A stretch of 64,000 bases of DNA from a phage, in sequence record OZ346175.1; one strand, given 5' to 3'. Of the stretch, positions 3,087 through 33,738 are shown in pieces. Under the pieces are notes generated by a model, which worked only from the letters and a program-made list of their open reading frames with translations, was not told the DNA's origin and made no database searches. Position 1 is the first letter of the stretch, and each line of letters begins with the position of its first letter. The position numbers and the translations under genes were made by a program.

Positions 3087-3586
3087 TGGCTGAAGTTATC
3101 TCTATTTCAAATGCTACACGAGTGCATTCGTATAGAGGTGTTCTTATTATCACTGACAAATTATCTGTAGGGGCTGGCTCAAGGGTCAGCCTTTCAGGTT
3201 ATGTAAGTGATGGTGGAACCTCTGACGTTTTCACTATTTGCAGGTTACTTGATGCACCAATGAGTGGAAAACCGTTTATTTCAGGAAATTGTAGTGAAAT
3301 TGTTAAAATTCCATTTGACAGTTCATGCCTTTTGGGTGTAAAGTTATATAACTGCGAGAATAAACGTATCAATGTTAATAGCATTGAAGCCGCTTTCATT
3401 ACCCTCGACACTGCATTTCAATCTCCAATGACAGTTAATAAAGAAACAAACAGACTTGAATACATTTTTTCACAAAATGATTACAAAGTACTTGTCAAAG
3501 GCAAAGTATATGATATGATTGTAAATGTGGTAGATGAATCTGGTAACCATTCAACAGTCCTTAAACAAAAAGTAAGGTTTAATTAA
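3086..3586 (+). CDS. hypothetical protein (head module)
   Basis: 166 aa ORF, start overlaps portal stop (ATAATGG), co-directional. Confidence 0.5.
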   Translation: MAEVISISNATRVHSYRGVLIITDKLSVGAGSRVSLSGYVSDGGTSDVFTICRLLDAPMSGKPFISGNCSEIVKIPFDSSCLLGVKLYNCENKRINVNSIEAAFITLDTAFQSPMTVNKETNRLEYIFSQNDYKVLVKGKVYDMIVNVVDESGNHSTVLKQKVRFN

Positions 3587-3918
3587 TGGGAACATTAACT
3601 ATTGATGGTAAGAATAAAATCCTCGCCACGCTAACCCCAACGACTATTATTTTACACAATGTAGACCCAACGGCAGACCCTACAGCAAATAAGGTTACTC
3701 AGCCAGTGGCTATTTATTTTTCTGAACCGGATAATGGCTTAATTGCCTCAGAAGACACAGTTAATATCGCTGTTCCAGCTTCTGCAACGGTCTCACACTA
3801 TAGCTTGTGGGATGCTAACGATAAATGCGTGGCAACTGGTGCTCTTAGCAAACCTCAATTCTTTGCTGAAGAAGGTATCTATGTTATCTCTTCAGTCTCT
3901 GTAGATTTAAACAAATAG
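3586..3918 (+). CDS. hypothetical protein (head module)
   Basis: 110 aa ORF tightly packed between neighbours. Confidence 0.45.
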   Translation: MGTLTIDGKNKILATLTPTTIILHNVDPTADPTANKVTQPVAIYFSEPDNGLIASEDTVNIAVPASATVSHYSLWDANDKCVATGALSKPQFFAEEGIYVISSVSVDLNK

Positions 3919-3929
3919 GGTGAGTAAAA

Positions 3930-5276
3930 ATGAGTTCGAATATCTTCAGACTTGCTGATAGATTATTCAACCAACCTTTACTAGCCACTGAATCGTTAGC
4001 TCACTCAGCAGCAACTTATGTGAATAACAGATTGCTGGGTGATGTCCAAGCAGCAGTAAACTTTGATAAACCCAAAGGTGAAGCAAGAAGTCTTTTAAAA
4101 GTGAAAGATGACATTGCTATTATCCCTATTATGGGTGGTTTAACCCATCGTATGACATTCATTGATGCAATGTGTACAGGTGGATTAAGCTCTTATGAAG
4201 GTTTGCGTAGAGGCTTTGACGAAGCTTTAGCAGATGAGTCAATCAAGACTATTGTTCTGCACATCGATTCTGGTGGTGGTGAAGCTTCAGGTTGCTTTGA
4301 ATTAGCACGTCACATTATGGCTTCAAGAGGCCAAAAGAAAATTATTGCTTATGTAGATGAGTTCGCTTGTTCCGCTGCATACGCTCTTGCATCTTCTGCT
4401 GAAGAAATTATTGCATCACCAGATGCAGATGTTGGTTCTATCGGTGTAATCATGGTTCATCAGGAATTAACTAAGGCATTTGAAAAGAATGGCGTAACAA
4501 TTAACGTCATCAAAGCTGGTGAGTTTAAAGGTATGGGTTCACCATTCCAAGCACTCTCAGAAGAAAGCAAAGAAAGACTTCAAAAGAGAATTAATGATAC
4601 CTACGCAACCTTTACAGGTTTTGTAGCTGAATCTCGTAAACTCTCTGAAGAAGCTGTAAAGAATACTGAGGCGAATGTTTATTCTGCTCAGGAAGCTCTT
4701 GAACTTGGTTTAATTAACTCAATCATGTCTCAAGATGATTTCTTAAATTACTTACAAGGTTCTGAAGAGGCTCCTGTAAGTTTAAACGTTAACAATTCAG
4801 GTGAAGAAATGACTGAACAAGAAAAGCAAGAACTAGAAGCTTTGCGTCTTCAGGTTGCTCAAATGAAAGCTAAAGAACAGGAAGCTGCTTTGTCAGATTT
4901 GACTAATAAGATTTCTGCTTCTGCTGAAGCTTTTGGATTTGATGCAAAAGAAGCTGCAACGACTATTTTAGGTGCTGGTCTTGATAACCCTCTGAGCGTT
5001 CTGTTTATGAATGCTATGGAAGGTGCTAACCAGAAACTTAATGAAACTATCGCGTCCCATGCTTCTGCAATGGAAGAAAAAGAATCAGAAATTACCAAGC
5101 TGAAAGAAACTGCTGGTGCTGTTCTTGAACATTCCAACGCTATGGAAGAAGTGGGTAATGACGGCGAAGCTGATTTGGTTGAAGAAGAAAAAGAACCAGC
5201 TAAGAATGCTTCCGAAGACACCGCTGAACAACGCAAACTGGCTCTCCAGAATGCTCTAAAATCTCTTATCAAATAA
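3930..5276 (+). CDS. prohead protease (S49/ClpP-like) fused to scaffold-like C-terminal region
   Basis: S49-type motifs IVLHIDSGGGEASG and FACSAAYALASSA; acidic/coiled-coil C-terminal half; precedes capsid gene. Confidence 0.8.
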   Translation: MSSNIFRLADRLFNQPLLATESLAHSAATYVNNRLLGDVQAAVNFDKPKGEARSLLKVKDDIAIIPIMGGLTHRMTFIDAMCTGGLSSYEGLRRGFDEALADESIKTIVLHIDSGGGEASGCFELARHIMASRGQKKIIAYVDEFACSAAYALASSAEEIIASPDADVGSIGVIMVHQELTKAFEKNGVTINVIKAGEFKGMGSPFQALSEESKERLQKRINDTYATFTGFVAESRKLSEEAVKNTEANVYSAQEALELGLINSIMSQDDFLNYLQGSEEAPVSLNVNNSGEEMTEQEKQELEALRLQVAQMKAKEQEAALSDLTNKISASAEAFGFDAKEAATTILGAGLDNPLSVLFMNAMEGANQKLNETIASHASAMEEKESEITKLKETAGAVLEHSNAMEEVGNDGEADLVEEEKEPAKNASEDTAEQRKLALQNALKSLIK

Positions 5277-5287
5277 GGAACACAATA

Positions 5288-5698: not shown

Positions 5699-6805
5699 AT
5701 GTTGACTAATTCTGAAAAAAGCAGATTTTTACTTGCTGACCTGACTCGTGAAGTCCAGTCTATCCCAAACACTTATGGGTATATTTCCAACTTAGGTCTG
5801 TTCCGTTCAGCACCACAAACTCAGACAACCTTCCTGATGGACTTGACAGATTGGGATATCAGCTTGCTTGATGCTGTAGACCGCACTAGCCGTAAAGCTG
5901 AAACAAGTGCTCCTGAGCGTGTTCGTCAAATCAGCTTCCCAATGATGTACTTCAAGGAAGTTGAAAGCATTACTCCTGATGAGATTCAGGGTGTACGTCA
6001 GCCAGGTACTGCAAATGAACTAACCACTGAAGCTATCGTTCGTGCTAAGAAGCTGATGAAGATTCGCACCAAGTTCGATATTACTCGTGAGTTCTTGTTC
6101 ATGCAAGCTCTGAAGGGTAAAGTTATCGACGCTAATGGTGTTCTGTACGCAGACCTGTACAAACAGTTCGATGTAACTAAGAAGACTATCTACTTCGACC
6201 TTGACAATCCGAACTCTGATATTGATGCTCACATCGAAGACCTACGTATGCACATGGAAGACGAAGCTAAGACTGGTACTGTAATCAACGGTGAAGAGAT
6301 TCACGTAGTTGTTGACAGAGCTTTCTTCAGTAAACTTACCAAGCATCCGAAGATTCGTGACGCATACCTTGCACAGCAGACTCCGCTGGCATGGCAACAG
6401 ATTACTGGCTCTCTGAGAACTGGTGGTTCTGATGGTGTTCAGGCTCATATGAACACGTTCTACTACGGTGGTGTTAAGTTTGTCCAGTACAACGGTAAGT
6501 TCAAAGACAATCGCGGTAAGACCCATACTCTGGTTAGCATCGATGGTGTTACTCAGGATGGAACTGTAGGTGTAGGGCACGCTTTCCCTAACGTTTCTAT
6601 GCTTGGTGAAGCAAACAACATCTTTGAAGTAGCTTACGCTCCATGTCCGAAGATGGGCTACGCAAATACTCTGGGTCAGGAGTTGTACGTATTTGAATAC
6701 GAAAAAGACCGTGATGAAGGTATTGACTTCGAAGCTCACTCTTACATGCTGCCATACTGCACACGTCCTCAACTGCTGGTTGACGTTCGCTCAGACTCTG
6801 AGTAA
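5699..6805 (+). CDS. major capsid protein (putative)
   Basis: 368 aa ORF following protease/scaffold; strong SD; position typical of HK97-fold capsid gene. Confidence 0.7.
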   Translation: MLTNSEKSRFLLADLTREVQSIPNTYGYISNLGLFRSAPQTQTTFLMDLTDWDISLLDAVDRTSRKAETSAPERVRQISFPMMYFKEVESITPDEIQGVRQPGTANELTTEAIVRAKKLMKIRTKFDITREFLFMQALKGKVIDANGVLYADLYKQFDVTKKTIYFDLDNPNSDIDAHIEDLRMHMEDEAKTGTVINGEEIHVVVDRAFFSKLTKHPKIRDAYLAQQTPLAWQQITGSLRTGGSDGVQAHMNTFYYGGVKFVQYNGKFKDNRGKTHTLVSIDGVTQDGTVGVGHAFPNVSMLGEANNIFEVAYAPCPKMGYANTLGQELYVFEYEKDRDEGIDFEAHSYMLPYCTRPQLLVDVRSDSE

Positions 6806-7277: not shown

Positions 7278-7759
7278 TGGTTAAAAGGGTTATTCACCCC
7301 GCTAGAGCAAAATTAGTCGGGGCTATGAAGAACTTGCAAACGGCTAATGCTCAAGTTGGGTATTTTCAAGAACAAGGTCAACATAGCTCTGGTTTTTCTT
7401 ATCCTGCTTTAATGTATTTACAAGAAGTTATTGGGGTTCCTTCAGCTTCTGGTAAAGTATATCGTAGGTTGTTTGAAATCACTATGATGCTAAACAAACA
7501 GACCTTGTTAGAGCAGACTAAGAAGAATCTATATAAGCAACTTAGCAGTCTCAACACAGACCCTTCAAATACCTTAGAAGCATTTGCAAAGAATGCTCAA
7601 AAGGCAATTAAAAGAGGTTTTGGTAATTCTGCTATCCTCCCTCCTAACGCACCTTCCACAGTCAAGAAAAAAGGCTTTAACGCACCTCTTGTTGAGACAG
7701 GTGACTTAAGAGATAACCTTGCTTATAAAATTTCTACTAAGAAGGGTATTAAGAAATGA
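7277..7759 (+). CDS. hypothetical structural protein
   Basis: 160 aa ORF, overlapping start/stop with neighbours. Confidence 0.5.
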   Translation: MVKRVIHPARAKLVGAMKNLQTANAQVGYFQEQGQHSSGFSYPALMYLQEVIGVPSASGKVYRRLFEITMMLNKQTLLEQTKKNLYKQLSSLNTDPSNTLEAFAKNAQKAIKRGFGNSAILPPNAPSTVKKKGFNAPLVETGDLRDNLAYKISTKKGIKK

Positions 7760-8157
7760 GACTCTTAAACAGACACAGCTTTGTAGTAAAGCGTAAAGTC
7801 TCTGAAGACGGTTATTATAATGATGATGGTGATTGGGTAGCTTCACAAGATATTGTAGAGGTTAACTGTAAAGGTAATATCCAACCATATATCAAAGGTT
7901 CTGTAAAGAATGGTACACAGATTGCTTTACCGGAAGGTATCAGGCTTACCGATACAAGAATCCTGTACACCACATATAAACTTAGAACTTCAGATGATGT
8001 AGAGTGGAATGAGTCTGATATTGTTATGATTGATGGTCATGAGTATGAAGTATTTATGACTATGGATTGGTCACAGCAATTAGCCCATACATCCCATTAT
8101 GAATATATCATTATTAGAAGGGATAAAATGAATGCAGTTAGAAACAGCAGAACTTGA
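7756..8157 (+). CDS. hypothetical structural protein
   Basis: 133 aa ORF, translationally coupled. Confidence 0.5.
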   Translation: MRLLNRHSFVVKRKVSEDGYYNDDGDWVASQDIVEVNCKGNIQPYIKGSVKNGTQIALPEGIRLTDTRILYTTYKLRTSDDVEWNESDIVMIDGHEYEVFMTMDWSQQLAHTSHYEYIIIRRDKMNAVRNSRT

Positions 8158-11259: not shown

Positions 11260-19275
<8,016 letters not shown>

Positions 19276-26395: not shown

Positions 26396-26600
26396 CTTTC
26401 TTCTTCCGTTTGCGTGAAGTGTCAATCAATGAATCTATGTTTGTAGCTCTAACCTTTTCACGTTCATCGTTAAGATAATCATCAAGAGCCTTTTCAATCT
26501 GTGAATCATCTTGACAGATGACTGTAAAGACTGTAAAGCCATCTGTATCATCAATTATCTTACCATAACCGCTTCTGGGATGTAACTTTTTAAGAGCCAT
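26388..26600 (-). CDS. hypothetical protein
   Basis: 70 aa ORF, co-directional. Confidence 0.4.
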   Translation of the reverse strand: MALKKLHPRSGYGKIIDDTDGFTVFTVICQDDSQIEKALDDYLNDEREKVRATNIDSLIDTSRKRKKKDE

Positions 26601-26985
26601 ACCAAATACCTGTGCAGCTTCTGTTTTCTAAGAAATACTCAACACCGTACATAGCTTTTTGCATCAAATCTTCTTTAAACTGGATACGATGATTTAGCAT
26701 AGCCTGTACATCAATATCTTCATGGTGCTTCTCTTTAATGTTTGCAGATTGCAGGAAATACTCTGCAAGAACACGATACTGATAGTCAGTTACTTTATCA
26801 GTCATCTCTGTCAAAGACTCTTCAGAGATTGGTTTAAGTAGCTCACCATTAGCTAGAGCAACACCTTTAACAATCTGGCAAGTGTCTTCTGGAACACCTG
26901 ATAAGTCCACATTTGGAAGTTCTGTTGCATTAACTGGTAAATTCATTGCCATAACCATTGCAGCAGCTAATAAAACCTTTTTCAT
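26590..26985 (-). CDS. secreted/periplasmic protein with signal peptide
   Basis: N-terminal MKKVLLAAAMVMAMNLPVNA signal-peptide-like sequence; SD AGGTT upstream. Confidence 0.55.
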   Translation of the reverse strand: MKKVLLAAAMVMAMNLPVNATELPNVDLSGVPEDTCQIVKGVALANGELLKPISEESLTEMTDKVTDYQYRVLAEYFLQSANIKEKHHEDIDVQAMLNHRIQFKEDLMQKAMYGVEYFLENRSCTGIWYGS

Positions 26986-27385
26986 AATAACCTCAAAGTT
27001 ATATTAAATTTTGTATTACATTGAGTATAAAAATAAGCTATAACACCTGACTTGTCAACAGATTTTATAGCTTATTTGGCAGATTTTTTATAAGGCTACT
27101 GCCATCCTTCCATACCCTACCTTACCACACCCAACCATACCTAACCAAACTACACCATACAATACCTTATTAAAAGACCCTCTTAAAGACCTTTTAAAAA
27201 GGTAAGTCTCATTTTAATGTAGATGAGACTAACTACCCATACCAAACAGCACCGCACTATGCCTTACCCCACCTCACCGAGCCTCGCCCCACATCACTTA
27301 AAAAACCCTTTTCAAAGACTCTTAAGTGATGTTGGTGAGTACCCGTTGGTTTATGCTGCTCAGTATACTCACCAAATTTTCTATG
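26986..27385. other. ~400-bp non-coding island with hairpins and CA-rich degenerate repeats
   Basis: 11-bp inverted repeat ATAAGCTATAA/TTATAGCTTAT (27033-27075); palindrome CCTTTTAAAAAGG; inverted repeat CATCACTTAA/TTAAGTGATG (27289-27334); CA-rich tracts 27103-27172 and 27230-27290. Confidence 0.5.
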
Positions 27386-27574
27386 TCAACAACTTTCTAA
27401 TAAAGTTTTATGAAGATTTTGCTTAACAACCCGCCTCACATGCCTGTGCTCTTTCTTAATAAAGAGTGACCTCTTCTTGACAGAGCGCCTATTCTTGTAA
27501 GTATTACTAGGATACTTATCATGAACCGGACAACAGCTACCCGGATTGGTAAACTTGATAATCTCTCTTTTCAC
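27386..27574 (-). CDS. small basic protein
   Basis: 62 aa, K/R-rich, start overlaps ligase stop. Confidence 0.4.
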   Translation of the reverse strand: MKREIIKFTNPGSCCPVHDKYPSNTYKNRRSVKKRSLFIKKEHRHVRRVVKQNLHKTLLESC

Positions 27575-28707
27575 TATTCATAATCCCTAATAACTAGCCC
27601 AACAGGGAACTGTAAAGACCCCTTACGAGTCATCTTCTGGAACTGAACCGTTAAAGGCTTCCCGATAAACTCTTCAGGGTGTTCAGCAAGATACTGTTTC
27701 TTCTCATGAGTAGTCTTCCATGAGACATCTACAAAGACGTTAGGAAGAGTCTCTACAACGAACTTACCATGACCACGCTTATCGGTCTTTACACCAGTCA
27801 CTTTAAACTCTTCAGTGTGCATCTTCTTGTGCTTAATCAAGAAGTATGAACGGTGACAACACTCATAGAAGGAGTCTTCAGAGATTGAACGGTACATTGC
27901 ACCTTCAAACTTAGCTTCAACCCACTTATCATGGGCTTCATCAAACTCTTCCCAAGAATTTACACGGATAGTCTGTACAGGAACAACTCTACAGGTATCC
28001 CCAAGCTCAACAATAGGTGAGTTATCAATAACTTCACGACGTTCAGGCCAAGATTTTGAATTGTCGCAGATATCATACCAGTAGAATTTAAGAAGGTGAC
28101 GGTCTGGATTGTCAGCATTCTTAATCATAGATACAATATCTTCTAAGTCCCAACCATGAGCATAAATCTCTCCATCAAAGTCTTCAACTTGCGGATGTAA
28201 TTTAAGCAACAAAAGCAAATCTGGAATTAGTTCTGCTGGAACGTTGTAAACAGTATTCTCACGAGAATAAGCTGTGAAACCGACTGAATCAGCATCTCTT
28301 GAAATTCTACAACGGACACCATCAAGCTTTGGTTGAGCATCAGCAGGGAACTTCAGATACTTTGCATGGCTAACCTTTGCAGCATCATGAGCAAGCTGTA
28401 CACCTACTTTCTCAGTATTCTTTGCAGACTCTTTTGTGTAAGCGTAGCCTTTACGGTCAACTTGCTTTTTATACTTAGCAGCAACTTCAAAGAGAGCTTG
28501 CTGTTCAGCGTTACGCTCATTCTTTTTACCGATGTTTTTCGGTTCTGCTGTGTACTCTTCAAACATCATCTTGCCATTTTCTTTACCATAGGTTGTAATA
28601 ACTTTGTCACCTACAGCAACGCATGACCAGACGTTGAAAGAGCCATCTTTATTTTGTTTGTATAGGATTGTCATTTTTATTCCTCTGAGTGATACCAAGT
28701 ATTGCAA
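27574..28707 (-). CDS. ATP-dependent DNA ligase
   Basis: Adenylation motif I KLDGVRC (KxDGxR); 377 aa. Confidence 0.85.
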   Translation of the reverse strand: MQYLVSLRGIKMTILYKQNKDGSFNVWSCVAVGDKVITTYGKENGKMMFEEYTAEPKNIGKKNERNAEQQALFEVAAKYKKQVDRKGYAYTKESAKNTEKVGVQLAHDAAKVSHAKYLKFPADAQPKLDGVRCRISRDADSVGFTAYSRENTVYNVPAELIPDLLLLLKLHPQVEDFDGEIYAHGWDLEDIVSMIKNADNPDRHLLKFYWYDICDNSKSWPERREVIDNSPIVELGDTCRVVPVQTIRVNSWEEFDEAHDKWVEAKFEGAMYRSISEDSFYECCHRSYFLIKHKKMHTEEFKVTGVKTDKRGHGKFVVETLPNVFVDVSWKTTHEKKQYLAEHPEEFIGKPLTVQFQKMTRKGSLQFPVGLVIRDYE

Positions 28708-29975: not shown

Positions 29976-30503
29976 TCAACTTAGTTTTGCAAACTCTCCG
30001 TGGAGTTTAATAGCAGCTTCACAGTAAGCTTTATGGGCTTCTTCAGGTGTGTCATGGTAACCTAAAAACATCTTCTTACCTTTATAACTTATCTGTGCGA
30101 CCCACTTACCAGACTTCTTCTTCAGGCTTACACCCTTATAGCCTGATTTATTGGTGGATAGTTTGCTTTTATTCCAAGCACTTTGGTAGTCATCTGCTTC
30201 TCTTAAGTTTACAATCCTGTTATCAAGGGAGTCTCCATTAATATGGTCAATAACACCTTTCGGCAACCTACCATACATGTACAGCCATGCGAGTCTGTGT
30301 GCTTTATGTGCTTTCTTGTCAAAATAGATAGTAATCTGCTTATGACCAGTTGAGTCAATCTGGATGCTCCCCGCTACCTGTCCTGCGTACTGACTATTAA
30401 AAACTTTAACAGCCTTTGAGTCGCCCTCTCTACGAAGCCAAGTAAAGACCCCTGTTTCGGGGTCATAGTGTAGTAGTTCCTTTAAACGTTCTTTTGTAAT
30501 CAT
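29976..30503 (-). CDS. HNH homing endonuclease with AP2-like DNA-binding domain
   Basis: HNH segment VIDHINGDSLDNRIVNLREA; AP2-like SGYKGVSLKKKSGKWVAQISYKGKKMFLGYHDTPEEAHKAY; start set at ATG 30503 by conservation with paralog at 40374. Confidence 0.8.
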   Translation of the reverse strand: MITKERLKELLHYDPETGVFTWLRREGDSKAVKVFNSQYAGQVAGSIQIDSTGHKQITIYFDKKAHKAHRLAWLYMYGRLPKGVIDHINGDSLDNRIVNLREADDYQSAWNKSKLSTNKSGYKGVSLKKKSGKWVAQISYKGKKMFLGYHDTPEEAHKAYCEAAIKLHGEFAKLS

Positions 30504-30513
30504 TTTGTCACCA

Positions 30514-31070
30514 TTAATGCACTTCCAACCACGATTTACCAACCTTTGCTGTACCAGTTACAAGTGTTTCTTTCCTCAAACCTAAGTTTTTTGAAGCTTG
30601 TCCATACATCCAGTCAGCAATTGCTTTCATATCATGTGTCATACCCTCTGGACATTCCCAACTATTTTCATCGTGATATGCCAGAAGTAACCTTGCTCCG
30701 ATAGCTGGTTTTCGAGCATTCAGTTTTGTCAGGCCATCTTCACAGGCTTTTCTTGCTGCTAGGTTGATGGCCTCATTCTGAATCTGTGCTTCCGAACTCA
30801 TCAGGAGGTAGTTCAGTAGTTTATGTGGAGATTTGCACCATATCCATGCTCCAGCGACCCTGATATAACCACCTTTAGCAATTGAAGAATTCTTCCCAAA
30901 AACCTCTTCCAGAGCCTTTTTAGACGCCTTAAAATCGGCTTCTAAGCTATCAAGTAACTTCTTAATCTTTGGCAGACGCATATAGTAAGTTTGTTTAGTT
31001 AATGCACCTTCCTCTGTAGAAGCTGCCTTAATGGTTTTGGCAAACTTCTCATCACCTGCACCGAACAATA
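30514..31070 (-). CDS. DNA polymerase (family A) exon 2, C-terminal portion
   Basis: Begins LLFGAGDEK (motif B continuation, cf. T7 YGFLYGAGDEK) and contains motif C LLAYHDENSWECP; in-frame TGA 3 codons upstream of first sense codon. Confidence 0.8.
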
Positions 31071-31338
31071 CATCTGGTCAATACACTCGCAAGGTGTACC
31101 AGTTCTCTTATGAACTTCTCCGCATTTCTACGGAGTGTCGGACTATATCACGTAGTAGTAATACTACCGTTGCACTTGGGAATGGTCATTGGCTTACCAC
31201 CCTACTCTACTCAGTTCATACGTTAAGTATGCTTTTCGATAGTCTCTGAACGTTCCTCTTAAGAGGCTTCGCTGCTGATTACCATATCTTTACAGACTTA
31301 GGCTTCCAGCAATTCACAACGTTTTACATGCGCCACTG
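31071..31338 (-). ncRNA. group I self-splicing intron (ORF-less) within DNA polymerase gene
   Basis: On - strand RNA: 5' exon ends ...AUGCGU pairing with IGS GCGCAU (U.G at splice site); core elements P-like UUGCUGGAAG, Q AAUCAGCAGCG, R GUUCAGAGACUA, S GAUAUAGUCC; terminal G; splicing restores ...AKNGIYA-LLFGAGDEK. Confidence 0.75.
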
Positions 31339-33481
31339 ACGCATAAATGCCATTTTTGGCTTTCTTACGACCTTTTGTAATCTCGTGGAGAAGTTCCTCA
31401 TCCTGTGTCTCCCTACAACGAACAATATCTTCTTCCTTGTTCAGACCAAAGTAAATACTGTTCAGTGTATGCGCATCAGTCCCTGTGTAGACTTCATAGA
31501 GGTCGTTCTCAGCATCATAACGAAGATACTTGTCAGTTTCTGGATTAAGGTGCTTATCAAGATGTTTGCAATAATATCTCCCATCTTCTTGCTTGGTAAA
31601 TTCTACTGACTCTTTACCTTCAGTTACTGCTTTAGTGAACTCTTTATCACCCATAAAGTTACACAGTAAAACAAGCTGTGCAGAGTTCTGGTCAACAGAA
31701 ACAATGTTAGTCCCCTCTTCACAAATCCACACTGCCCTCATAGGTGCTCCATAGACAGCAGCACCAGACGGTACGTTTACAATACCATATTGTGTCATAC
31801 GTCCAGTTGAAGTACCAAACACCATTGCACCAGCACTAAGGCGACCATCAGGACGAATCTGGTTCAACCAACCTTTTTCATCATCCTTTGAGTTCTCAAT
31901 AGTTCTGCGTCGGTGCATCAAAGTATAGTACTTAGCAATCTTCTGTCCAAGCTCACCTTCAATCGTATCATAAGATGATTCAGTAAGTTTTGGTGAAGTA
32001 CGGATTAAGCAAGGCTCAAGCAAATCTGTGTACTTCTTCACAGACCAGTTATGCTCAATGTACTGTACACCTTCATGTTCAACATAACTCAAACCACACC
32101 GCTCAACCATTTCCTGCCACTTAGGATGTTTTGTAATCATCTTTTTATTGTCTTTGAAACGACAAACTTTGACAGGGCGACCATCTGAATCTTTCTTGTA
32201 GTTCCAGTCATCTGGAATCCAACCAACTGATTTCAAGTAGTCTTTAACAACTGCTACCTGAGTCATATGAGAAACTTCAAACTCAATTGGTGTATATGGT
32301 GCATCAATCAAACCTGTGTAGCGACTTGACTCAAGTTCAAAGTGATTGACAACGTGACTGTTATAGTACTTCACAGTCTTGACTGTTTTTACTGGTTTCC
32401 AGTCTTTGCATTTTTTGCCAATCTTTGCATTCAACTCGTTGCAGATTGCACGAGCATCCTTCATCGCTACAAAACCCTCTTTGTACTCTTCACCAGTTAC
32501 AGAGTTGGTTGGTGTATAGCAATTTCTCTTTTCAATGTTAAAAATCTTTGTAGTTGGCTTACCAAATGGCTTGATTTCATATGTCTGCATCTCACCATTA
32601 CGTACCTGCTGACGATACTTTGTCTTAGGGTACTTGGTAATTCTTTTCAGTCCATCTGCATGACCAAATGCTTCAACATACTCATTCCAAGCTTTTGCAA
32701 ACTCTTCTCCAGTGACTTTACCTTTGGTCTTAATAGTTGGAGGTAGATGTGGTTCAACCTCTGAAGCAAGCTCATTAGTCAACTTGTCAAGCTCCTTTAC
32801 ATGGAACTCCATAAGCTCTTTATCAGCTTTCCAACCATTGATAGCTTGTTGACTCATCCAGAAAGATGTTTCTTTAGCTCGCATGTAAGTTTCATAAGTG
32901 TCTATGCCACACTTCTTAAGCTTGAGATACTCGTTATCAAGTGCCCGTTTAGTTTTGGCGTTAATACGGATATCTTCTACAACACGAGTGAAGATTTCTG
33001 CATTCCACACACCCCAATGCTCAATCTCTGGCTTACGAACACCAACACGAGCACCCCATGCAGCCAAGCCATGAGCACCTTTATAACCCTTTGGAGTTGG
33101 TCTATCCATCCACTGAACACGAGACTGGATAAGAGAATCCTGAAAGAAATTACTCCACGGCTTACACTTTGGATTATCAAAGTTCCATAAATCAGGTGCA
33201 ATGTGATTAAAAACCCACCAGTCATAACCGAGACCGTTATGGATGCAAAGACGTTTTGCCTTTAACGCAAATTCAACACCTTCACGTAAGCCACCCTTAA
33301 TGTACTTGGTATACTTGTGACCGAGGATAGGTTCATCCGTAAAGACCCATACAGGTGGCTCTTCATCGTCAGATTTATAGTCTGCGAAAGCCATTACGTG
33401 CACTTTAGTGAACTCAAGGAGTAAACCATCAGTTTCTGTATCACCAACTAAATGTAAGTTTTTAAAATCTACGTTTTCCAT
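31339..33481 (-). CDS. DNA polymerase (family A) exon 1, 3'-5' exonuclease and N-terminal polymerase domains
   Basis: Exo I motif LVGDTETDGL; ends in motif B start GRKKAKNGIYA; start set at ATG 33481 with GAGGGAG SD (track start 33511). Confidence 0.85.
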
Positions 33482-33738
33482 TTTTACTCCCTCTAAAATC
33501 ATTAACCTCATACATTACTGCAAAAAATTATAAAAAGCAAGTTGACAATGCACTTGACAAGGTGTTAATCTTTGCGAAGTGGGTTTTTACTTAAAAGGTT
33601 ACTTAACAGTTTAACTATACAGATACTTTAAAACTCTTAAAAGATTATTTAATAGCTTTTAAAAAGCTTTAAAGTATAACGTATAGAATACGTTAAGATA
33701 AAAGATTAAAACTTAATAGTTACTTAAAAGAGGCTTAC

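Follow-up and report, generated by a model that had tools for sequence, protein, structure and literature searches.

A noncoding gap of 400 bp in a Felix O1-like phage, located at positions 26986 to 27385 of a 64,000-nucleotide (nt) stretch of sequence record OZ346175.1 (here called the window), very probably contains two guide RNA genes on the minus strand. We consider these genes to belong to a type II (SUSP1-clade) Viral Interference Programmable Repeat (VIPR) system, to be directed against a satellite phage, and to be recent orphans of their effector, and we put the probability of this assignment at about 85%. The phage is a myophage (Felixounavirus) with a genome of ~85.5 kb, of which ~21 kb lies beyond the window, and the region from 26400 to 28000 was matched by 260 phage records at 80 to 99% identity. 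The kind of element is already known, and what is new is confined to the absence of the effector.

VIPR is a phage system for RNA-guided DNA silencing, made up of the minimal RAMP-like protein Vipr, an accessory protein, Vap, and ~100-nt guide RNAs designated vrRNAs (bioRxiv 10.64898/2026.04.26.720920,.720927). A vrRNA has 9 to 16 GGY/NN repeats followed by a conserved tail of ~40 nt, which is a pseudoknot in the SUSP1 clade. Cryo-electron microscopy (cryo-EM) revealed one Vipr protomer per repeat, with G1, G2, and Y3 flipped out and sequestered and N4N5 presented. The presented dinucleotides read double-stranded DNA by a 1-nt-skip code (NNxNNx...), on either strand and with no protospacer-adjacent motif, and the Vipr filament at a bound site brings about transcriptional silencing. 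The type II locus of SUSP1 (PDB 36pp) is arranged as vrRNA1 - vipr - vap1 - vrRNA2-4. Guides of the SUSP1 clade are mostly aimed at an Escherichia coli satellite phage that shares a baseplate gene with SUSP1, and some satellites bear vrRNAs of their own, aimed at rival satellites (for all of these statements, bioRxiv 10.64898/2026.04.26.720920,.720927). The SUSP1 arrays yield ~100-nt vrRNAs that copurify with Vipr, as seen by small-RNA sequencing, and the same was reported for P. fulva (bioRxiv 10.64898/2026.04.26.720920).

The gap is built on a 5-nt frame. The pattern ACCNNACCNNACCNNACCNNACC, searched with at most 2 mismatches, gave 13 matches, all in register and only at 27104-27166 and 27251-27288, with 0.01 expected per 64-kb window, and a register scan of both strands of the entire 64 kb revealed no arrays besides these two. 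The pentamer pattern is far beyond chance. The original prediction, made by reading the letters of the stretch, had described C/A-rich tracts of degenerate heptamers (CCATACC, CCTTACC, and CTAACC). The unit proved instead to be a pentamer, NNACC on the plus strand and GGYNN on the minus strand, and the functional strand is the minus strand, whose product is G/U rich. Along that strand the order is promoter-like site P1, leader, vrRNA-A, a 36-nt box, vrRNA-B, and promoter-like site P2, with the two guides back to back between the promoter-like sites. Each unit runs from a leader through 10 to 11 degenerate pentamers of the form G1-G2-Y3-N4-N5 into a 34-nt pseudoknot tail. The 400-bp gap is wholly made up of promoters, leaders, guides, and tails, as follows.

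26986-27385: noncoding gap, flanked by minus-strand open reading frames (ORFs) at 26590..26985 and 27386..27574.
27362..27389, minus strand: promoter-like site P1, TTGACA-16-TATACT, sigma70-like, 11/12, upstream of the first guide gene.
27294..27355, minus strand: 5' leader of vrRNA-A, with its start placed from P1; hairpin CATCACTTAA...TTAAGTGATG (arms 27288-27301/27322-27335).
27239..27293, minus strand: vrRNA-A guide, 11 pentamers.
27205..27238, minus strand: 3' tail of vrRNA-A, H-type pseudoknot GG-GTAG-TT-AGTCT(CAT)-CTAC-ATTAAA(ATG)-AGACT.
27167..27204, minus strand: spacer and vrRNA-B leader, TACCTTTTTAAAAGGTCTTTAAGAGGGTCTTTTAATAA, including the 13-bp palindrome at 27190-27202.
27112..27166, minus strand: vrRNA-B guide, 11 pentamers.
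27078..27111, minus strand: 3' tail of vrRNA-B, pseudoknot GG-AAGG-AT-GGCAG-TAG-CCTT-ATAAAAAAT-CTGCC.
27030..27077, minus strand: inverted repeat with a 12-bp perfect core and promoter-like site P2, TTGACA-17-TATTTT, sigma70-like, at 27058..27030.

The pentamers of vrRNA-A are TGTGG GGCGA GGCTC GGTGA GGTGG GGTAA GGCAT AGTGC GGTGC TGTTT GGTAT, giving the NN code GG GA TC GA GG AA AT GC GC TT AT; those of vrRNA-B are GGTAT TGTAT GGTGT AGTTT GGTTA GGTAT GGTTG GGTGT GGTAA GGTAG GGTAT, giving AT AT GT TT TA AT TG GT AA AG AT. GGY is intact in 8 of 10 units of vrRNA-A and 9 of 11 units of vrRNA-B. With 10 to 11 tandem units, a conserved GGY, and hypervariable NN, both arrays lie within the range of 9 to 16 pentamers that defines vrRNAs. 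The loop of the vrRNA-A leader hairpin bears a box, GAGTCTTTGAAAAGGGTTTTTT, related to the vrRNA-B leader. Leftward transcription would start at P1.

The homologous locus was gathered from 38 relatives, including the closest, LF82P2, and was parsed in the 37 in which both anchors were found; P1, allowing at most 4 substitutions, could serve as an anchor in 38 of the 39 related loci. Parsed relatives had 1 to 5 arrays each, always on the gene-sense strand, with 7 to 17 units and a mode of 12. A logo of 60 distinct arrays (744 units) showed G at position 1 in 85%, G at position 2 in 99%, and T (82%) or C (10%) at position 3, with N4 and N5 near random. Phages with 95% identical flanks can differ entirely in their NN positions, and their leaders, tails, and promoters are conserved. 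The tails were equally regular: 17 distinct 34-nt tails aligned without gaps and fit a single H-type pseudoknot, pairing columns 3-6 with 17-20 and columns 9-13 with 30-34, in which 98.7% of cells pair (98 to 100% by helix), in comparison to 29 to 42% in slid controls. Eight of the nine base pairs had changes on both sides, that is, compensatory changes. Both island tails fit this fold, and the vrRNA-B tail is the commonest of all, with 37 copies in the sampled loci. Folding of the whole vrRNAs was no better than that of shuffles (z scores of +0.39 and +0.41), and minimum free energy was not taken as evidence; such scores are in keeping with a guide region that is single stranded and ends in a structured tail. 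In the proposal of a structured small RNA, the small RNA was right: homologous SUSP1 arrays are expressed as ~100-nt vrRNAs that copurify with Vipr (bioRxiv 10.64898/2026.04.26.720920). Structure is confined to the 34-nt 3' tail, where it covaries, and the RNA taken whole is not unusually structured. The expectation of conservation in related phages held for the frame, tails, leaders, and promoters and failed for the hypervariable NN positions.

Identification of the arrays as vrRNAs came from their neighbors in other genomes. An exact scan of IMG/VR for (GGTNN)5GGT recovered heterogeneous arrays, often in clusters of 2 to 12, in many unrelated viral contigs, and in several of these the gene just upstream of the arrays encoded a product ending in G(I/V)GD(W/F)RP. 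In 16 of 26 related loci, a two-gene cassette lies between the arrays, comprising a 195-aa gene (phrog_4652) and a 146-aa gene. The 195-aa product also ends in G(I/V)GD(W/F)RP, and it matched PDB 36pp, "SUSP1 Vipr protein," with an E value of 1.5e-127. By tblastn, a Vipr homologue was found in 11 of 17 unrelated array-bearing viral contigs. The Vipr proteins are highly divergent between clades, down to 22 to 30% identity; Pfam, NCBIfam, and PADLOC returned nothing for Vipr or Vap1, and PHROGs returned only "unknown function." As the logo, the tail, and the locus layout match the published definitions point for point, the island arrays are assigned as vrRNA genes. The suggestion that the gap serves as a protein-binding array was correct in an unexpected sense: cryo-EM places one Vipr protomer on each pentamer of the RNA. 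Unrelated metagenomic viral contigs carried 4 to 12 tandem GGY/NN arrays adjoining distant Vipr homologues and having other punctuation: GGCTAAT (contig L050, reverse complement, 3391-3848), GGAATGGTTTAATGAATTTAATT (L062, 2217-3376), and GGCAG (L071, reverse complement, 11500-12040, and L077, reverse complement, 7526-7824). They probably represent further types of VIPR, among them the arrays that the preprint calls "staggered."

The guides were then compared with the E. coli satellite. The satellite search was seeded with the window gene at 13487..14284 (plus strand), which follows the tape-measure gene and is assigned to phrog_3721, "baseplate." Of 5,426 complete E. coli genomes, 474 have chromosomal loci 91 to 93% identical to its first ~560 nt, and the satellite itself is present in 474 to 526, or about 10%. 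It is a chromosomal element of ~11 kb that carries genes for recombinases, an HNH endonuclease, a tape measure, and a baseplate protein, including copies of Felixounavirus tail genes; Vipr and Vap1 were not found in the satellite elements. Insertion sites were several (yciI/tonB, DUF72/yecD, ymdF/wrbA, and mdtG/lpxL), with flanking serine-recombinase genes (satellites L163 to L171).

A 1-nt-skip scan with mismatches allowed, run over nine satellites (105 kb), found a site for each guide. The vrRNA-B code matched 20 of 22 positions (22 of 24 counting a leading AA) at 6716-6747 on the plus strand of satellite L169, and the vrRNA-A code matched 19 of 22 at 16195-16226 on the minus strand of satellite L163; shuffled guides reached at most 17 of 22 in either case. 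These are NN matches of 91% and 86%, respectively, each above the 80% level used to call a target. The vrRNA-B site, which also scores 18 to 19 of 22 in four other satellites, overlaps the -10 and start region of a TTGACA-17-TAGTAT sequence ~50 nt upstream of the first gene of an operon, and this sigma70-like promoter is apparently that of the satellite's main operon. The vrRNA-A site falls in the coding sequence of the large recombinase and is in frame, with every skipped base at codon position 3. In the phage's own genome, neither guide has a match above the level of shuffles. Many other Felixounavirus guides matched the satellite at an NN identity of at least 0.85, a level that the best of 20 shuffles reached for 2 of 77 guides; the scan independently reproduces the published satellite-targeting result.

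Earlier, stricter searches had been uninformative. Scans for perfect 1-nt-skip matches in one genome per species gave none for vrRNA-A. The exact matches for vrRNA-B, one in an unrelated, AT-rich metagenomic viral contig (L149, inside a 1172-aa ORF and with no E. coli match) and one in Alloprevotella (L150), were taken as chance. Because they needed perfect matches and sampled one genome per species, these exact-pattern scans could not find the satellite. A blastn search of the entire island against E. coli genomes returned nothing. One satellite, L168, carries at 5217-5281 (minus strand) its own 12-unit GGY/NN array with a Felix-type pseudoknot tail, GGGTGGATTGTCGTAGCCACGTTAAAAATCGAC, and without vipr. 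The Bas63 (JohannRWettstein, L158) homologue of vrRNA-B, at positions 224-313 of its region, has a (GGTTA GGTAT)x4 expansion, apparently by slippage, and has lost the match to the satellite site (0.65 NN match).

The island differs from a complete system in lacking its proteins. There was no tblastn hit to vipr or vap1 in the 64-kb window (best E values of 2.9 and 1.1), and none with an E value of 0.3 or less in the LF82P2 genome, searched over its full 85.6 kb. LF82P2, ~95% identical to the window and collinear with it, carries two arrays at the same place. No vipr gene (RAMP-like, with the G-loop GDWRP and a thumb) lies by the arrays, and no vap1. In the phage collection, 260 records had the region and 133 had a Vipr homologue, ~118 of the latter Felixounavirus-like at 90% identity or more, so that roughly half of the Felix O1-like phages are guide only. 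The Vipr-positive share was 77 of 120 for Escherichia phages versus 17 of 77 for Salmonella phages.

Comparison with Vipr-positive relatives suggests how this state arose. In those phages a 36-nt box, CCTTTTTAAAAGGTCTTTAAGAGGGTCTTTTAA, occurs twice, flanking vrRNA2, vipr, and vap1. The island layout is that of the Vipr-positive phage tootiki minus ~1.28 kb between the two box copies, a segment holding the second guide, vipr, vap1, and a terminator. Region positions 1-223 of the window correspond to tootiki 1-223, and positions 188-413 correspond to tootiki 1467-1692 at 97.3% identity; these boundaries place the presumed deletion junction at the duplicated leader box. We infer from them that the effector cassette and one guide would have been lost by homologous recombination between the two 36-nt leader boxes. 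The gapped code cannot be read without Vipr, and the orphan guides would therefore be idle alone and could act only if some other source, such as a coinfecting Vipr-positive relative, provided Vipr in trans.

The simplest account is that a recombining population recently lost the effector cassette and that its guides have so far stayed intact. The vrRNA-A guide is identical in Vipr-positive tootiki and Tribble and in the Vipr-less humlepung and Bas63, and near-identical vrRNA-B alleles also occur in Vipr-positive phages. A third state of the locus (L004, L005, L017, and L153 to L156) has one hybrid array between P1 and P2 in a region of ~280 nt; G1 is degenerate there, only 0.595 of GGY triplets are intact, and 6 of 7 distinct guides have no satellite target. 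The single-array locus looks like a decaying end state, and degenerate, target-less loci of this kind fit a later stage of decay.

Several points weigh against the assignment as a whole. The vrRNA-A target was found in just one of the nine satellites sampled. The absence of vipr from the ~21 kb beyond the window is taken from the closest relative. Insertion of a cassette into a two-guide ancestor would leave a junction identical to that of a deletion, no intrinsic terminator was found in the island by scan, and the VIPR mechanism rests on two 2026 preprints. It is the identity of the arrays as vrRNA genes that is well supported, and not their function as guides in this phage, which stays putative.

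A different view of the orphan state is that selection maintains it, live guides being loaded onto the Vipr of coinfecting relatives so that the phage free-rides on, or redirects, a shared effector, as seems to be the case for the satellites and their vrRNAs. About half of the Felix O1-like records are Vipr-less at this locus, 260 having the region and ~118 having Vipr at 90% identity or more. Guides confined, in this sample, to Vipr-less phages match satellites as well as the others do (NN matches of at least 0.85 for 11 of 28, versus 19 of 45 guides from Vipr-positive phages), including a perfect 22/22 match for UAB_69 and UAB_Phi87. The intact-GGY fraction is undiminished in two-array orphans (0.747, versus 0.750 in Vipr-positive phages), and the vrRNA of satellite L168 is likewise without vipr, as the preprint reports for satellites. 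But vrRNA-A and near-identical vrRNA-B alleles are shared with Vipr-positive phages, and so recent loss with frequent recombination explains intact guides without selection; single-array orphans are degenerate and mostly target-less, as decay predicts; and the sample is small and cannot separate use in trans from recent loss. We regard selective maintenance as possible but unlikely. That the arrays are decoys, soaking up the Vipr protomers of rival phages in the manner of solitary-repeat RNA anti-CRISPRs and thereby protecting the phage or disarming a competitor, is very improbable. The arrays do retain the GGY frame and the tail on which Vipr binding depends, and they stand just downstream of a near-consensus promoter-like site, yet a decoy needs no particular NN code and both guides match satellite DNA well above shuffles. 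Moreover, no sampled Felixounavirus guide matches Felixounavirus genomes above background, which leaves no evident VIPR attack for a decoy to counter.

A complete system might instead be hidden in the ~21 kb beyond the window, as vipr and vap1 or as a very divergent RAMP-like effector. Only 64 of ~85.5 kb is visible, and Vipr identity between clades falls to 22 to 30%. Against this, vipr genes were at this same locus in 16 of 16 Vipr-positive relatives, the ~95% identical LF82P2 had no hit anywhere at an E value of 0.3 or less, and the window had none below an E value of 1; we hold out little expectation of such an effector. The least credible proposal was a DNA-level or generic element, whether a promoter/terminator hub, an R-loop or G-quadruplex origin, a packaging or protein-binding array, or an antisense rut site. 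It could draw on two promoter-like sites, several hairpins, a G-rich nontemplate strand downstream of P1, and a C-rich, G-poor plus strand that, as judged from its sequence, resembles a rut site. None of this predicts a strict 5-nt frame with fixed G1G2Y3 and free N4N5, a covarying pseudoknot, linkage to Vipr in unrelated viruses, or gapped matches to a satellite, and the promoters are real candidates but flank the arrays and do not explain them. The original prediction of a terminator/promoter hub survives as far as promoter-like sites flanking the island, and the scan gave no support to its terminator part. Narrower candidates were dropped on three grounds, namely, the GGY/NN frame, tail covariation, and Vipr linkage: a boxA-like antitermination site (GGTCTTTAAGAG versus rrn boxA), a CsrA sponge, two-tetrad G-quadruplexes, an R-loop origin downstream of P1, arrays of Chi, KOPS, or BREX (GGTAAG) sites, arrays resembling those beside the T7 terminal repeats, and an antisense rut site. 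Recombination modules like T4 PeSL were dropped except for the deletion/insertion role of the leader box. A TRAP-type operator was rejected because the conserved triplet is GGY and not (G/U)AG, and eight neighboring gene products had no match to an RNA-binding family in Pfam or PHROGs.

The TRAP sites of Bacillus trp leader RNAs, 11 (G/U)AG triplets with 2- to 3-nt spacers, nevertheless resemble the arrays in part. Both are single-stranded RNAs with a conserved triplet, a free 2-nt spacer, and one protein subunit per repeat, and from this resemblance a periodic RNA-binding protein was predicted before Vipr was found. They differ in the triplet (GGY versus GAG/UAG), in the protein assembly (a helical RAMP-like filament versus an 11-mer ring), and in the spacers, which hold a DNA address in vrRNAs and are filler in TRAP sites. 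Guide repeats without cognate effector genes are also familiar from orphan CRISPR arrays, phage mini-arrays, and RNA anti-CRISPRs, and the same three readings (relic, use in trans, and decoy) arise. The architecture is unrelated, the specificity of the island lying in 2 of every 5 nt and not in spacers between repeats; the island has only a 5-nt periodicity and two ~130-nt modules, with none of the ~28- to 37-nt repeats and unique spacers of a CRISPR array. We know of no acquisition machinery for VIPR. The closest known system remains that of SUSP1, also a Felix O1-like member of the Ounavirinae, with the locus in the same slot between a DNA ligase gene and a 131-aa gene, the same GGY/NN frame, pseudoknot tail, and strand relative to neighboring genes, and the same target, the E. 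coli Felixounavirus satellite. The island differs from it in being without vipr and vap1, in having two guides versus four to five, and in the back-to-back placement of these guides between the two promoter-like sites. The vrRNAs of the satellites are likewise effector-less, and the L168 tail fits the island-type pseudoknot, but they are encoded by the parasite and not by the helper phage.

The genes that border the island are the following, all on the minus strand.

26590..26985, minus strand: downstream gene, 131 aa, with a signal-peptide-like N terminus; phrog_4332, function unassigned.
27386..27574, minus strand: upstream small ORF, 62 aa, basic; phrog_5428.
27574..28707, minus strand: ATP-dependent DNA ligase gene, upstream of the 62-aa ORF.

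In all relatives the 131-aa gene, which is not part of VIPR, forms a fixed border of the locus on its right-hand side. The 62-aa ORF directly follows the ligase gene, and the ligase side is the fixed left-hand border. The small gene between ligase and P1 varies: in humlepung and tootiki its place is taken by a hydrophobic ORF of 48 aa (L001 2487-2648; read by eye) and in Bas63 by a small annotated ORF, and both the 62-aa and the 48-aa ORF are missing from some phages.

The inverted repeats, 13-bp palindrome, strand bias, and minus-strand TTGACA in a hairpin loop that had first drawn attention to the gap are all present. One inverted repeat, 27031-27049/27059-27077, has 19-nt arms that are 89% complementary, with a perfect 12-bp core and a 21-nt loop; another, 27288-27301/27322-27335, has 14-nt arms that are 93% complementary; and two more lie at 27332-27341/27366-27375 (10 nt, perfect) and 27202-27212/27223-27233. 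The palindrome is CCTTTTAAAAAGG, at 27190-27202, the TTGACA is at 27058-27053, and GC skew falls to -0.85 at 27100-27199. The P1 -10 element falls within the perfect 10-bp repeat. P2 occupies the loop and 3' arm of the 27030..27077 repeat and is followed by a T-run; this sequence is nearly invariant across all related loci. P2 probably drives the 131-aa gene, and the repeat may be the 3' boundary of the guide transcript. The tRNA and noncoding-RNA scans that had been proposed were negative for the island, with no tRNA or transfer-messenger RNA found by ARAGORN and no family matched in Rfam 15 at the gathering threshold.

Public records treat the locus inconsistently. That of warpig (MN850637.1, 85957-86106) covers only 155 nt of the island before it stops within the locus, probably because the assembly broke at the repeat. 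UAB_69 gp111 is a plus-strand ORF called across the arrays, and MN850564 and MN850647 label the arrays "repeat_region"; none of these records annotates an RNA gene at the locus. The region goes unmentioned in the Felix O1 genome paper and in the Bas63 PhageMaP preprint.

Elsewhere in the window, a group I intron at 31118-31401 (minus strand) was the sole Rfam hit (RF00028, 64.2 bits versus a gathering score of 50). It overlaps the 3' end of a 737-aa ORF at 31298..33511 (minus strand) with no Pfam match, and ~600 bp further along the minus strand is an ORF of the homing-endonuclease type with HNH_3 and AP2 domains (29976..30542, minus strand).

Published surveys start from the Vipr protein, and loci without Vipr are therefore invisible to them. 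In this case, a reading of raw sequence alone picked out part of a system for RNA-guided DNA recognition whose first report dates only from 2026. Guide arrays persist without an effector in about half of the Felix O1-like phages, including the model phage Bas63 and several Salmonella phages such as UAB_69 and UAB_Phi87. In these orphan guides the GGY frame is preserved, as is the match to the satellite. Direct repeats of 36 nt lie on either side of the effector cassette and can account for its loss or gain. For annotation, spurious ORFs and bare "repeat_region" labels should be dropped at this locus. If the guides are not used in trans, such loci time-stamp recent loss of the effector and provide a natural series for the decay of guides. 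If they are, the conflict between phage and satellite would gain a population-level dimension of shared effectors, in which guides and effector would be separable public goods and guide-only genomes would be a stable strategy and not products of decay.
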